From assembly GCA_964016885.1 (NCBI GenBank), contig OZ024742.1, positions 171,492,001 through 171,556,000 on the forward strand: a stretch of 64,000 nucleotides of DNA. The letters run 5' to 3'. Under the pieces are notes generated by a model that saw only the letters and a list, made by a program, of their open reading frames with translations, was not told the origin of the DNA and did not search any database. This DNA comes from Eledone cirrhosa (taxonomy: Eukaryota). The position numbers were made by a program, and so were the translations under genes. Position 1 is the stretch's first letter; every line of letters starts with the position of its first letter. Below, one piece after another: positions 1,447-62,115 of the stretch.

Positions 1447-2310
1447 TTCACATATATATTGACCTGTATCAATCGTTTCTCTCGGTGGCCTGAAGCCATA
1501 CTCCTAGTGGACATAACAGCCGGGTCCGTTGCCCGAGCTTTCATTTCCAATTGGGTTGCTCTGTTTGGTGTTCCTTCTAAAATAACCACGGATCGCGGAT
1601 GACAGTTCGAAGCTTCCTTATTTCGTGAAATATCCCGACTTTTGGGTGCTCATCACATACATACAACCAGCTATCACCCAGCCTCCAACAGAATGGTGGA
1701 GAGGTTTCACAGACAGTTGAAAGCTGCACTACGCGCTACTCCTGATCCGCAACGTTGGACCGAATATTTGCCAATCGTACTTCTTGTTTGTCGTTCTGCC
1801 GTTAAGACAGATTTGGGTTTCTCCTCAGCTGAACTTCTTTATGGTACCACCTTGACTCTTCCCAGTCAAATGCTAGCAGCGGTTGATTCATCGCATCTTG
1901 ACACCAGGATTATTTCTTACTTCTCGGATCTTCCACCAATGAACCCTCATGACCAGTCTATTTCTTCTGCTGTACCATCGGATATCTCTACGTGGACACA
2001 CACTTTTATACGGAATGATTCCGTCAAGGGACCGCTTAAATCACCCTATAATGGACCCTTTCGTGTGCGTTCGCACGCACCAGAACATTTCACAGTGGCT
2101 GTTAATGGTCGAAAAGTGACAATATACATTGACAGAGCAAAGAGCGCTTTCTCTGAAAGTCTCATTACAATGTCTGATACACCTCGTACATACACTCCCA
2201 TACCAACACCTTCACCTCCACCGCAAACACCACATACCACACAACCTTATGTCACATGAGGTGGGAGAACAGTGAAATGGCCACGTAAACTGTCAAAAAC
2301 TATATACATA
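1444..2310 (+). mobile_element. Gypsy/Ty3 LTR retrotransposon integrase fragment (pseudogenised)
   Basis: Reads FTYILTCINRFSRWPEA...FGVPSKITTDRG*QFE...TTSYHPASNRMVERFHRQLKAAL...SAELLYG...LKSPYNGPFRV. This is an rve core plus GPY/F motif, with an in-frame stop. Confidence 0.92.
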
Positions 2311-4584: not shown

Positions 4585-6158
4585 TATATATGATTTGATA
4601 TTTTCCAATTACCTTTTGAAATATAAGATTCTAAAAGTTTGTGTCTAGAACTAACTGAAATATCAAAGCCTTACCTTTTAGTAAGGAGTCGATCCTCAGA
4701 GGAATCCAATGAGGCTATGTAACTGTTAGTGTTTCTGCTGCTGTTATTATCTGCCGGGTGAAACACATGGCAGAAGAAAGCGAGATTTGAACTCAGAATG
4801 CACAGATCCGAAACAGATACAGGACACACCTCCCACTTCACTGGCACCTTAAACATTTCGCCAATGCCTCTCGGATAAATGAAAGACTTTGCTGACCTCG
4901 GCAGGATTTGATCGCAGTCTGTAGAGCACCTGATCACCTAACGCAAATTATCCCACCCGACACTTTTACAATTTTACCAATCCATCACTCCGGGACTGGC
5001 ATTTTATTTATCAAGCCACATTCGTAAGGCAATGTTGGTTCCGGTAATATTTGAAAGTAGAAAAACGGAACAAATATCGATGTTACAACCATCCTATTAA
5101 ATGTCCGTTGAATAATTTCGGCAGTTTTCAACAGATATTTTTGTATACATAATCATCTACAGTCTGATACACACAGAAATTTCTAGATTCATGCTTCTTT
5201 ACTATTTATACGAGATGACTTCTAAAATACAGTGTATATTTGAAAATGTCATTATACCCATGCTATTTGGATGTTTCAAAGAAATCGATAAGGTGAAAAT
5301 TCTTTAAAAACAAGGAAACATATCAAAAATATAAAATATATATGAGTTCCACATGAAAAGAGATAATCCGGTCTTATCATATAGATAAATCTTTTTACTT
5401 AACTCTTAACATTTGTGTATATTTTGTTTGCGGAAGCATAAAACGAGACGAGGGATCTCTCTATTCATACATGCGGTGTGTAAAAAAAAAGTATAACGGA
5501 GTAACAAAAATCAGCATCCATGTTGAATCCTATTAAACGTAGATAAATCAATTTCAATGTAGGCGTTTAATGTTCGTTTTTACTTTTGATACAATTAAGA
5601 CTGTGGAAGCCATTTGGGGGAGAATTTATATTATCTGATCATTGATGCTCAACTAACACAGCTCTGACATAAGTATGGGATGAAAATACGATAGATTATA
5701 TCAAATGTGTATGTAAAGAACTAATGAAGGTTCTTACATATGGATGCGTATAACACCAAAATTACACATCTCAAACAACAAAAACACACTTACACATAAG
5801 TATTGCATGTAAGTTTGTATGTATGCCATATACACGGAAGCTTACATGTATGTGTGCATGTATGTATGTGTATAAACACACACATACGCACACACATATA
5901 TATGTAAATACATGTATGTGTGTATATTCATTATAATATACAGGGTGCGAACGATATTTGTCCTCCCAGCGCGGATTCCAAGAAGAAATCCGTGTCTCTT
6001 CCACAAATTTGGAGGTTCAGAATTATTCATAATCAGTTATCCTGAAAATAAATAATGGAAATATAGTCACTGTTTTTATGAAGACAAGAGTGACAACGGA
6101 TAGTAAAAAAAATTTGCATAAAAGTGTCGGCAACTAACCAACACATATTCAAATTTAT

Positions 6159-15787: not shown

Positions 15788-15966
15788 TGTTTCTACTTTA
15801 GGCACAAGGCCACCAATTACCCAGTGCATTACTGGTACTTTATTTTATCGACCCCGTAAGGATGAAAGGCAAAGTCAACCTCGGCGGGATTTGAACTCAG
15901 ATCGTAAAGGGACGTAACTATGCTGGAAAGCATGGCGTCCGACCCTCTCCCGATACTGCCAATCCA
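15788..15966 (-). mobile_element. tRNA-derived SINE family A
   Basis: Full family body with A and B boxes. Its 3' end runs into the (TAA)n tract. Confidence 0.9.
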
Positions 15967-16372
15967 CATGGTGGTTTTGGACAAGGAAAAAAGATCGTGC
16001 CTGGTTGTGGATGTGGCCTGCCCATTCGACACGAGAGTGCAAGAGAAGGAGAAGGAGAAAATTAACCAGGACTTAAAGTGGGAGGTAAAAAGGATTTGGA
16101 ACTGCCATGAAGTCAAAGTGGTCCCGATTGTCATAGGCGCACTAGGTACTATCTCAAAAAGTTTTCAGGGATGGTTAAAGAAAATTGGCCCCTGCCACGC
16201 TTTTTGGAACGCTTCAAAAGGCATGCTTGCTGGGAACAGCAAGAACCCTCCAATACGTCCTGAATATCTGAGGCTGCAGGTAGTGACTTGATATTCATTT
16301 CAACAAACTTTCCAGTCAACTAACATCAATGACTGAGACTCAAAGAACAATAACAATAATAATAATAATAAT
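15967..16372 (+). mobile_element. 3' end of an RLE-endonuclease non-LTR retrotransposon (R4/Dong-like)
   Basis: MVVLDKEKRSCLVVDVACPFD...EKEKEKI..DLKWEVKRIW...VVPIVIGALG, then after a frameshift LQKACLLGTARTL. The 3' UTR ends in (TAA)n, the known Dong target. Confidence 0.8.
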
Positions 16373-50090: not shown

Positions 50091-50894
50091 GTTTCTGAAT
50101 TTGCTTAGCAAGATTCTTTATCTGAAAACGTGTGTTGAAACCGATATTGTTATACTTTGGGAGGGTCATGTTGCCAAAAAGAAACACACGCACCAGTTGC
50201 TTTCACTTCAATTTATTATAATAAATTTATAAATTTAGGAATTTATGAATTTCCATTTGGTTGGTTGGTTGGTTTCACAACCAGATGGTTGTTTATATAT
50301 TGTCAAAGTTCTTTCGTCACACATTCTGTGACCTCCTCATTGACTGGGGATTATTTTCTTTGTTTTTGTGCCTCTCCTTTGTTCTTCTCCTACGCCATCT
50401 TGTTTCTGTGTGTGTTGTGTGCTCAGTCTGCGCATGCGCCACATCCGGGTGTCTGTGTGTGTTTATATTCGTTTATTTATTTGTTTATTTACATGTTACA
50501 GGTTGGTTGTTTGTTCTATGTGCGTGCGTGTTTTCATTTTGTCCTTAATTGTAAGTTGTGATGTTGCTGTAAATAAACGAATATAAACACACACAGATAC
50601 CCGGATGGGGCGCATGCGCAGACTGAGCACACAACACACACTCAGAAACAAGATGGCGTAGGACAGAACAAAGGAAGGGCAGAAAAACAAAGAAAATTAT
50701 CCCCAGTCACTGAAGAGGTCACAAAATGTGTGACGAAAGAACTTTGACAATATATAAACAACCATCTGGTTGTGGAACCAACCAACCAACCGGAAATTTA
50801 TAAATTCCTAAATTTATAAATTTATTATAATAAATTGAAGTGAAAGCAACTGGTGCGTCTGTTTCTTATTGGCAACATGACCCTCCCAAAGTAT

Positions 50895-57589: not shown

Positions 57590-58054
<465 letters not shown>

Positions 58055-61000
58055 TGTTTGGCCCGAATCTTCCTCTATCGATTTTAAATCGTATGGTTGA
58101 TTGTAGACTTGTTCTATATGTGACGGTATTTTAACGATAGTTATAGCTCTGATTCACCTGAATTATTGAGCCCTCTGCCGCTCATATCGAATTTCGTTTA
58201 TCGTGAACTCGTGCGCCGATTTTTCGATACTCGATCTTTCTAATATATTTAGCTCTGGACATAGCTATCCACCAGTTAATTTTATTGCTCATTTTTTGTC
58301 GATTCTATTGAGTGATGAATAGCTTTTGTTTTATTTTAACATGTCTATTGAGCACTCTAATTCGATATGTGTATTTCCACATTCACTCGAATTGTTTTCG
58401 CGGATATAGGGGTCATCTCCCTTGTCTAATGCCATGTGCGTTTTTCACTGGTAGTTGGCTCCTCTGCCGCCAGGAAAAAACCTCGTTGATAAAGTAAACC
58501 TCCGTTCTACTTGCTCTAGTAGGCTTTTATATTTATATGTGAGCTGATAGAGTACAGTCTAAGGATTTACAGAAACCCATGAAGCTAGATTTAACACCTG
58601 TCTAGTGGGTCCGGGTATGATTTTACATTCATTTAAATTATTGACGTATTGTTTTATTGATATTTTTTATCTGTTTGGCCCGAATCTTCCTCTATCGATT
58701 TTAAATCGTATGGTTGATTGTAGACTTGTTCTATATGTGACGGTATTTTAACGATAGTTATAGCTCTGATTCACCTGAATTATTGAGCCCTCTGCCGCTC
58801 ATATCGAATTTCGTTTATCGTGAACTCGTGCGCCGATTTTTCGATACTCGATCTTTCTAATATATTTAGCTCTGGACATAGCTATCCACCAGTTAATTTT
58901 ATTGCTCATTTTTTGTCGATTCTATTGAGTGATGAATAGCTTTTGTTTTATTTTAACATGTCTATTGAGCACTCTAATTCGATATGTGTATTTCCACATT
59001 CACTCGAATTGTTTTCGCGGATATAGGGGTCATCTCCCTTGTCTAATGCCATGTGCGTTTTTCACTGGTAGTTGGCTCCTCTGCCGCCAGGAAAAAACCT
59101 CGTTGATAAAGTAAACCTCCGTTCTACTTGCTCTAGTAGGCTTTTATATTTATATGTGAGCTGATAGAGTACAGTCTAAGGATTTACAGAAACCCATGAA
59201 GCTAGATTTAACACCTGTCTAGTGGGTCCGGGTATGATTTTACATTCATTTAAATTATTGACGTATTGTTTTATTGATATTTTTTATCTGTTTGGCCCGA
59301 ATCTTCCTCTATCGATTTTAAATCGTATGGTTGATTGTAGACTTGTTCTATATGTGACGGTATTTTAACGATAGTTATAGCTCTGATTCACCTGAATTAT
59401 TGAGCCCTCTGCCGCTCATATCGAATTTCGTTTATCGTGAACTCGTGCGCCGATTTTTCGATACTCGATCTTTCTAATATATTTAGCTCTGGACATAGCT
59501 ATCCACCAGTTAATTTTATTGCTCATTTTTTGTCGATTCTATTGAGTGATGAATAGCTTTTGTTTTATTTTAACATGTCTATTGAGCACTCTAATTCGAT
59601 ATGTGTATTTCCACATTCACTCGAATTGTTTTCGCGGATATAGGGGTCATCTCCCTTGTCTAATGCCATGTGCGTTTTTCACTGGTAGTTGGCTCCTCTG
59701 CCGCCAGGAAAAAACTCGTTGATAAAGTAAACCTCCGTTCCACTTGCTCTAGTAGGCTTTTATATTTATATGTGAGCTGATAGAGTACAGTCTAAGGATT
59801 TACAGAAACCCATGAAGCTAGATTTAACACCTGTCTAGTGGGTCCGGGTATGATTTTACATTCATTTAAATTATTGACGTATTGTTTTATTGATATTTTT
59901 TATCTGTTTGGCCCGAATCTTCCTCTATCGATTTTAAATCGTATGGTTGATTGTAGACTTGTTCTATATGTGACGGTATTTTAACGATAGTTATAGCTCT
60001 GATTCACCTGAATTATTGAGCCCTCTGCCGCTCATATCGAATTTCGTTTATCGTGAACTCGTGCGCCGATTTTTCGATACTCGATCTTTCTAATATATTT
60101 AGCTCTGGACATAGCTATCCACCAGTTAATTTTATTGCTCATTTTTTGTCGATTCTATTGAGTGATGAATAGCTTTTGTTTTATTTTAACATGTCTATTG
60201 AGCACTCTAATTCGATATGTGTATTTCCACATTCACTCGAATTGTTTTCGCGGATATAGGGGTCATCTCCCTTGTCTAATGCCATGTGCGTTTTTCACTG
60301 GTAGTTGGCTCCTCTGCCGCCAGGAAAAAACTCGTTGATAAAGTAAACCTCCGTTCCACTTGCTCTAGTAGGCTTTTATATTTATATGTGAGCTGATAGA
60401 GTACAGTCTAAGGATTTACAGAAACCCATGAAGCTAGATTTAACACCTGTCTAGTGGGTCCGGGTATGATTTTACATTCATTTAAATTATTGACGTATTG
60501 TTTTATTGATATTTTTTATCTGTTTGGCCCGAATCTTCCTCTATCGATTTTAAATCGTATGGTTGATTGTAGACTTGTTCTATATGTGACGGTATTTTAA
60601 CGATAGTTATAGCTCTGATTCACCTGAATTATTGAGCCCTCTGCCGCTCATATCGAATTTCGTTTATCGTGAACTCGTGCGCCGATTTTTCGATACTCGA
60701 TCTTTCTAATATATTTAGCTCTGGACATAGCTATCCACCAGTTAATTTTATTGCTCATTTTTTGTCGATTCTATTGAGTGATGAATAGCTTTTGTTTTAT
60801 TTTAACATGTCTATTGAGCACTCTAATTCGATATGTGTATTTCCACATTCACTCGAATTGTTTTCGCGGATATAGGGGTCATCTCCCTTGTCTAATGCCA
60901 TGTGCGTTTTTCACTGGTAGTTGGCTCCTCTGCCGCCAGGAAAAAACTCGTTGATAAAGTAAACCTCCGTTCCACTTGCTCTAGTAGGCTTTTATATTTA

Positions 61001-61329
61001 TATGTGAGCTGATAGAGTACAGTCTAAGGATTTACAGAAACCCATGAAGCTAGATTTAACACCTGTCTAGTGGGTCCGGGTATGATTTTACATTCATTTA
61101 AATTATTGACGTATTGTTTTATTGATATTTTTTATCTGTTTGGCCCGAATCTTCCTCTATCGATTTTAAATCGTATGGTTGATTGTAGACTTGTTCTATA
61201 TGTGACGGTATTTTAACGATAGTTATAGCTCTGATTCACCTGAATTATTGAGCCCTCTGCCGCTCATATCGAATTTCGTTTATCGTGAACTCGTGCGCCG
61301 ATTTTTCGATACTCGATCTTTCTAATATA
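58055..61329. repeat. Tandem array of a 616-617-bp unit, five full copies plus about 190 bp, embedded in (TA)n
   Basis: The unit start tgtttggcccgaatc occurs at 58055, 58672, 59289, 59905, 60521 and 61137. Copies are near-identical. Confidence 0.97.
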
Positions 61330-61353
61330 TATATATATGTATATATATATTTA

Positions 61354-61386
<33 letters not shown>

Positions 61387-61434
61387 ATATATGTATATAT
61401 ATATATATGTATATGTATATATATATGTATATAC

Positions 61435-62115
<681 letters not shown>

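Follow-up and report, generated by a model that had tools for sequence, protein, structure and literature searches.

A TA-targeted non-coding tandem element in Eledone cirrhosa: candidate copying from circular RNA and a hammerhead-like fold

The window analysed here is a stretch of 64,000 nucleotides of Eledone cirrhosa DNA (GenBank assembly GCA_964016885.1, contig OZ024742.1, positions 171,492,001 to 171,556,000, forward strand). Towards its right end a non-coding unit is repeated head to tail between two TA-rich tracts. We describe this array, the dispersed family to which it belongs, and a model in which the family may be copied from a circular RNA. Five units start at 58055, 58672, 59289, 59905 and 60521 (617, 617, 616, 616 and 616 bp). 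Another copy begins at 61137 and can be aligned over 194 bases, up to 61330, which gives 5.32 copies in total. Copies 1 and 2 differ from copies 3 to 5 by one extra C and one substitution. The GC content of the unit is 37%, and its longest stop-free stretch in any frame is 62 codons. The initial annotation, made from the letters alone, had described five near-identical units of about 617 bp plus a partial one (5.3 copies), TA-rich DNA at both ends and the lack of a meaningful open reading frame (ORF). All of this holds.

Tandem Repeats Finder misses the array itself because the longest period it was run with is 500. In three contigs of run X1, a run that is perhaps not independent of the assembly, the unit gives way to (AT)n at the same phase (58865). 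Since the same anatomy is also found at 39 other loci, an assembly artefact is excluded.

These loci come from a search of the animal's own 3.0-Gb genome with the unit. The best 40 of 883 candidates were scored and the 39 loci beyond the window were fetched, so that the resulting 40 arrays are chosen by whole-unit similarity. All 40 stop at unit position 194-197, at which point an internal AUAUAU merges into (AT)n. The 20 bases past the 3' end are TA-rich in 36 of the 40, and the 5' flank is TA-rich in 29. The 5' starts are scattered over phases, and the arrays hold 1.4 to 13.4 copies. The exact 3' junction has 705 matches in the genome, compared to 0 for a control. Older subfamilies (65-95% alike, in at least four groups, found via other motifs) share the 3' phase. 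The family consists of hundreds of dispersed non-coding insertions, nearly all with the same end point in TA microsatellites; it is young, numerous, TA-targeted and mobile. Mobility had been expected to show as dispersed arrays with different start phases in TA, and this is what the 40 arrays and 705 junctions reveal. The 5' phase does vary as foreseen; the fixed 3' phase was not foreseen. Target-primed reverse transcription characteristically leaves a fixed 3' end and a ragged 5' end, and is very probably how the family inserts.

To sample insertions by their 3' junction only, we went through the first 86 junction matches of contig C1 and used 80 of them, as six had already been fetched. Most of these insertions (49 of 80) are longer than one unit, and 22 extend beyond the 1.9 kb fetched. 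The RNA that is copied is likely to be of plus sense, because the plus strand folds better and carries the alternations expected of paired RNA. Circular-fold z-scores range from -4.0 to -5.8 on the plus strand and from -0.4 to -4.0 on the minus strand (four subfamily consensuses, 12 shuffles each), and substitutions that alternate between G-U, A-U and G-C occur on the plus strand only.

Each array carries a single internal haplotype. Across the 40 arrays, units differ by 1.3 bases within arrays and by 6.9 between arrays, and 19 haplotypes are present. Variants common to at least two arrays are fixed inside an array 158 times; the 16 polymorphic cases nearly all concern single units. Among array-private variants, 8 are fixed in all units that cover them and 71 are polymorphic. 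No multi-site haplotype switch and no common internal variant pattern occurs in any of the 40. A monomer copied round and round accounts directly for such one-haplotype arrays, and repeated reading of a monomer is likely. The initial annotation had argued from non-integer, head-to-tail copies, as reverse transcription round a circle would give, and the wider family, whose arrays are also homogeneous inside, bears this argument out. Later local rearrangement is visible too, between window copies 1-2 and 3-5, in arrays L036 and L039, and in an array of about 65 copies. The last spans about 40 kb (G000:C1:81709243-81749050, loci L142 and L143), belongs to an older subfamily and has the usual 3' phase. 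It was probably enlarged after insertion, because 18 sampled units differ by 0 to 24 bases.

The 5' ends are enriched just past a GUC. In the sample of junctions, phases 557-580 (phase 557 is the base after the GUC, window 58612) hold 14 of 58 resolved 5' ends. Expected are 2.3, or 2.7 when weighted for TA microhomology, and such a pile-up is reached in 0 of 20000 scan-corrected permutations. Fall-off at the site on successive passes is 9/72, 3/36 and 2/25, or 7.5 times the rate elsewhere. We also inspected 48 genome-wide matches by eye. Among these, 27 join at the TAT four bases past the site and three are blunt at the first C; the remainder are upstream joins or point variants (12), indels (4), one ambiguous match and one that skips the hairpin. 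A control TAT of like abundance (116 versus 130) gives 5-6 joins in 30 and no blunt join at C or G, again by eye. The upstream edge of the pile-up is the first base after the very GUC at which the initial annotation had placed cleavage. Two internal deletions (L279 and G000:C4:214825169) have a breakpoint at, or at most three bases from, the candidate cut; one spans about 190 nt and one drops the P3/P4 hairpin (Table 1).

The initial annotation had also drawn a hammerhead ribozyme around this GUC. Its motif, CTGATAGA...GAAACCC...GGGTC at 58544-58611, is present, but the fold as drawn fails. In an alignment of 21 sequences (A2; about four related groups, 20 of the sequences picked via the core motif) this fold pairs in 71.7% of cells, in 62% for stem I and in 55% for stem II, so that a stem II closing beside A9 and G12 is not found. 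Its covariation does not exceed that of shuffles, and 424 of 500 shuffles reach the stem II count. Beside the site, stem I consists of one G-C pair followed by two pairs that are broken in 21 of 21 sequences. The unpaired CUGANGA core of a hammerhead is also absent: CUGA is kept, and the four bases after it vary (UAGA, UAGU, CGGU, CAGU) and covary with a partner. These four bases, the would-be N7-G8-A9, belong to the top covarying helix in a search of all unit stems.

A junction rewired around this helix pairs in 97.5% of 606 cells. Three of its pairs change on both sides, and its score is reached by 0 of 500 shuffles. The purines of P1 change only between A and G, opposite U. In P5, three of four pairs are invariant, none changes on both sides, and one is broken in a subfamily lineage. 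Among 23 copies picked via another part of the unit, some of them the same loci as in A2, CUGA is kept in 22, CAGAAA in 23, GGGUCC in 21 and CCGGG in 23. The GAAA, the A15.1-U16.1 pair and the NUH triplet of hammerheads are all present. Judged by sequence, the conserved fold appears to resemble the standard hammerhead and to differ from it: half of the hammerhead core is retained in a rewired junction, and the apparent break falls where a hammerhead would cut. Self-cleavage by the unit RNA is conceivable, at slightly less than even odds.

Rfam models find no ribozyme at gathering score in the window, none at E<=10 over 58000-59400, and none over six loci of divergent members. A standard hammerhead-type descriptor finds 43 distinct motifs in 1.19 Mb of fetched DNA, none of them in the unit family. 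A relaxed descriptor of the hammerhead order matches 49 of 2000 dinucleotide shuffles of the unit on either strand; hence a single sequence could show this order by chance, although not often. A second CUGAUGA in the unit is intact in older subfamilies only and has no GAAA partner. Hairpin, hepatitis delta virus (HDV)-like, twister, pistol and hatchet readings were dropped by eye against consensus features; for the hairpin ribozyme, the would-be G8 position is not conserved and the loops are unable to dock. The hairpin comparison uses PMC8216279. A permuted, non-circular hammerhead (PMC10085705) does not fit either, as CUGANGA is absent after the CCCG strand.

Table 1. Positions in the window of the array, its flanks and the conserved junction (first copy).
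Feature	Position	Strand	Basis
Tandem insertion, 5.32 copies of a non-coding 616/617-bp unit; likely RNA sense	58055..61330	+	unit alignment, fold z
First full unit, 617 bp; 5' start phase varies among insertions	58055..58671	+	
Last partial unit, stops at the family's fixed 3' phase (unit position 194-197)	61137..61330	+	40/40 arrays, 705 junctions
Fixed 3' junction, unit AUAUAU into (AT)n target; putative priming site of reverse transcription	61320..61333	+	
Left TA-rich microsatellite tract, target side	57590..58054 (tract called 57590-58055)	.	
Right (AT)n tract, target or tail	61325..61551	.	
Conserved hammerhead-like junction	58537..58628	+	pairing, compensatory changes
P1	58537-58543 with 58622-58628	+	
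CUG(A)	58544-58547	+	
P2, covarying	58548-58551 with 58566-58569	+	
CAGAA	58570-58574	+	
P3	58575-58578 with 58607-58610	+	
P4	58584-58589 with 58601-58606	+	
GUC then C; putative RNA cut between 58611 and 58612; upstream edge of the 5' end pile-up	58609..58612	+	
P5, CGGG 58612-58615 with CCCG 58679-58682 across a U-rich loop	58612..58682	+	pseudoknot with, or alternative to, P1

The unit lacks the ORF with reverse transcriptase (RT) and GIY-YIG domains that marks autonomous Penelope-like elements, and a candidate enzyme is found elsewhere in the genome. The window itself holds a broken Neptune-type Penelope-like RT fragment at 213-1387 on the minus strand. A search with this fragment, of which the best 150 of 12238 candidates were scored, leads to many copies with intact ORFs of 1217 amino acids, one of them at L132:1052-4702. 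Two of these copies stand head to tail 4117 bp apart, and some have inverted 5' copies. Pfam assigns 0 families to the 1217-amino-acid ORF; we name it from motifs set out in 10.1101/2021.04.23.441226 and from its Atlas neighbours, which carry RT, GIY-YIG and animal helix-turn-helix domains. These elements, which are young, also end in (AT)n. Their tails stop within 60 nt of a few fixed phases in 53 of 56 matches (the other three continue into a next copy), and the flanks of the 53 go into (AT)n, some after a few extra bases. Their minimal hammerhead lies 220-278 nt before the end, compared to 250 nt in the unit. A scan of a Penelope-like family for 5' ends piled up at its own hammerhead gives 630 matches; among the 100 matches listed, most are point variants. 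The insertion pattern of Penelope-like elements (5' truncation, tandems, a microsatellite target) is also that of the unit family. The pseudo-long terminal repeat (pLTR) of a second Penelope-like family is, by eye, unlike the unit. The case for such a partner thus draws on the common target and anatomy, because the 44 loci compared show no significant sequence kinship to the unit and 5' inversions are rare. Another TA-targeting retroelement is a possible partner.

Two further observations concern Penelope-like elements. At L094 (about 1150-1310), a single case, the 5' end of an insertion directly abuts an inverted-plus-direct Penelope-like tail, without a TA tract in between; the same enzyme may have switched templates here, or a small deletion may have accompanied the insertion. 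In the Penelope-like element at L132 (about 5225-5240) a stretch of 16 bases is alike at 13 of 16 positions, by eye, to part of the last 25 bases of the unit. Lying near both 3' ends, it could be a candidate motif for recognition by the enzyme.

To explain these patterns, we propose the following cycle. Read-through transcripts of arrays would be cut after the GUC at 58611, perhaps by the RNA itself, a step to which we give a little under even chances. The cut RNA would be ligated into circles of about 616 nt, each then read repeatedly as a monomer, which we think likely. A GIY-YIG endonuclease would nick (TA)n, and the DNA end would pair with the internal AUAUAU of the unit, 250 nt downstream of the cut; therefore every copy would start there. 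The enzyme would then circle until it falls off, about sevenfold more often at the cut site than elsewhere, and the 5' end would join via short microhomology. In trans, one of the TA-targeting Penelope-like elements of the genome would probably supply this enzyme. We assign the whole model, TA-primed Penelope-type copying round a circular RNA that is opened and closed at the GUC of a hammerhead-like fold, a probability of roughly 0.5. A narrower claim is that this circular-RNA retroelement, spread by rolling-circle target-primed copying by a Penelope-type enzyme in trans, contains a self-cleaving ribozyme of an undescribed kind, derived from the hammerhead, with CUGA, GAAA and GUC retained and the G8/A9 register lost. 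This we hold to be doubtful, if still a serious candidate.

A number of observations weigh against the model. None of the six skipped junctions starts in phases 557-580, so that the pile-up is 14 of 64 overall. In the first array set only 3 of 40 starts fall in the pile-up window, with about 1.6 expected. Older subfamilies place 4 of 38 starts in the same 24-nt window (p 0.06), and reach 8 of 38 solely in a 31-nt window picked after looking. For 22 long insertions there is no resolved 5' end. An RT that stalls at the foot of P3 would leave an edge at the same place as an RNA cut. The rewired junction is derived from the same 21 sequences that score it, P1 and P2 are weak, and taken by itself the core region is no better folded than its shuffles (z -0.84 to +0.39). 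A clean target-site duplication is absent in the 40 arrays, where we find only one offset 20-mer, and copy L277 ends at a different phase. The partner is affected as well. The unit gives no significant blastn or covariance-model match to 44 loci around one Penelope-like RT, and an inverted 5' copy, typical of Penelope-like elements, is flagged in only 1 of 80 unit insertions.

The same retroelement may do without self-cutting. The edge at phase 557 would then come from an RT that stalls at the P3/P4 hairpin, from a transcription start or from cleavage by a host nuclease; the fold itself would be a decayed hammerhead retained for protein binding. This is unlikely, although by no means negligible: neither N7-G8-A9 in register nor a proximal stem I is present in the core, an Rfam ribozyme match is absent, fold stability is ordinary, and a stall simply explains why ends return at the site on passes two and three. 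What a stall accounts for less well is that other predicted hairpins of the unit give no similar peak, and that three blunt joins lie exactly at the base past the GUC with none at the control C/G positions. A further count against this reading is that CUGA, CAGAAA and GGGUCC are kept (in 22, 23 and 21 of 23 copies) across 30% divergence. Alternatively, the template could be a linear multimeric read-through transcript, with long arrays inherited from long sources or grown by unequal crossing-over. A constant fall-off per pass fits partly cut multimers, the internal rearrangements listed above are of the right kind, and local amplification is favoured in bioRxiv 10.64898/2026.07.22.740005. Yet a long homogeneous source would be needed for each of the 19 haplotypes, arrays copied in this way could only shrink, and haplotype switches or common internal patterns are absent from the 40 arrays. 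Linear multimers are weakened by this and still standing because later local rearrangement also occurs; we consider them improbable.

An active, near-standard type I hammerhead, as originally drawn, would make the family an ordinary non-LTR retrozyme (LTR, long terminal repeat). CUGA, GAAA, A15.1-U16.1, GUC and the G-C pair next to the site are indeed invariant or nearly so, and some activity is retained in natural hammerheads that carry A9U or an insertion after A6 (PMC3088659; PMC10085705). Two broken stem I pairs in 21 of 21 sequences, a stem II paired in 55% of cells whose covariation 424 of 500 shuffles match, and a descriptor that finds nothing in the family make this reading very improbable. 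About as improbable is that the 250 nt from the pile-up to the fixed 3' end are a spliceosomal intron and the ends products of splicing. The sequence offers a GT-R-W-G donor at 58615, donor-like variants in most subfamilies and a YAG retained just past the 3' phase, and Penelope-like elements retain introns (PMC4209133). Against splicing, the donor G is lost in a lineage at eight loci, blunt joins begin 3 nt before the donor, and intron-less copies account for 0 of 29 junction-pattern matches, a pattern that misses exons starting with G. The family could also be a DNA rolling-circle element of Helitron or Helentron type, or a satellite spread by recombination. Helitron-type elements also give dispersed tandem arrays near microsatellites, which counts for this possibility. 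Their hallmark is precise ends, either TC/CTRR or with subterminal repeats. Here one end is ragged with microhomology, TC/CTRR ends and subterminal inverted repeats are absent from the junction sequences at the termini of unit insertions, and both the better fold and the G-U/A-U/G-C substitution pattern are confined to the plus strand, which speaks for RNA; we regard a DNA element or satellite as very improbable.

The window has other features as well. Right of the array, between TA tracts, an inverted-repeat remnant at 61552-62078 contains a standard minimal type I hammerhead, whose core CUGAUGA starts at 61863 on the minus strand and which the Rfam gathering scan misses; the remnant looks like a fragment of a Penelope-like pLTR. 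More standard hammerhead-type motifs, together with tails of an abundant Penelope-like family ending in (AT)n, lie at 50710 (plus strand), 25257 (plus strand) and about 27100. An ORF fragment at 1603-2259 (plus strand) we take to be from a retrotransposon integrase, and one at 15908-16291 (plus strand) presumably from the C-terminal endonuclease of an R2/R4-type long interspersed nuclear element. Outside this genome, exact-pattern scans for the unit core find 0 matches in JGI metagenome contigs and 0 in IMG/VR contigs. Two runs with other organism labels contain contigs about 99% like the unit when compared with window 58062-59300: X2 (470 nt, five differences and one gap) and X9 (269 nt, five differences). 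These contigs may stem from close relatives, transfer or contamination. Run X15, which we guess to be an RNA run, holds only short partial pieces of the unit and has no bearing on expression.

How head-to-tail copies arise in animal retrozymes and Penelope-like elements is debated. Copying on a circular template by the reverse transcription of Penelope-like elements is a hypothesis in PMC7229834 and PMC4209133, and local amplification is preferred in bioRxiv 10.64898/2026.07.22.740005. The family provides direct genomic signatures of circle-templated copying: a fixed priming phase, ragged 5' ends past one unit, and one-haplotype arrays. It further points to a template, to a target and to a candidate enzyme with an intact ORF. 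If the junction cleaves, it is a new ribozyme architecture, or the hammerhead core is far more tolerant than assumed. Without cleavage, the family would show that a standard ribozyme is not needed for retrozyme-like circles to spread. Should the undescribed ribozyme be real, such elements would escape every retrozyme screen based on hammerheads. Our literature search, which left most subscription journals and supplements outside, yields no paper on the fold of the unit or on such insertion polarity in retrozymes.

Compared with the type I hammerhead (PMC3088659; PMC10085705), the unit shares the order of CUGA, stem, GAAA, stem opening with A-U, and GUC, with an apparent break after the C. Unlike in the hammerhead, N7-G8-A9 form part of a covarying helix and GAAA has two extra bases before it; stem I is about 10 nt off the site or replaced by P5, and stem III is long and stable. 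The family shares several traits with Neptune-type Penelope-like elements and their pLTRs (10.1101/2021.04.23.441226; PMC4209133). In both, copies are truncated at the 5' end, stand head to tail and have their 3' end in (TA)n; a clear target duplication is missing, and a hammerhead-type site precedes the 3' end by about 250 nt. In contrast to Neptune-type elements, the unit has no ORF, its 5' inversions are rare, and it does not match the two local families tested. The local Penelope-like elements carry standard minimal hammerheads, which the unit does not.

The defining feature of non-LTR retrozymes is that every tandem unit carries a type I hammerhead (PMC7229834; PMC4209133; PMC7761336; PMC6765202; bioRxiv 10.64898/2026.07.22.740005), and 24 of 57 Xenopus retrozyme families are akin to pLTRs in the last of these. 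With retrozymes as portrayed in PMC7229834 and the bioRxiv paper, the family shares small, low-GC, non-coding tandem units, a well-folded RNA, Penelope-like elements in the same genome and a proposed copying on circles. Its unit of 600-625 bp compares to circles of 170-400 nt in invertebrate retrozymes, and to 51-972 bp in the bioRxiv paper. The fixed priming phase, TA targeting and one-haplotype arrays visible here are features that we did not find reported for non-LTR retrozymes in the accessible text. By descriptor, by Rfam and by covariation, the unit is without a type I hammerhead. Because it works alike but fails the defining hammerhead, we count the unit as a variant of the non-LTR retrozymes rather than as a member.

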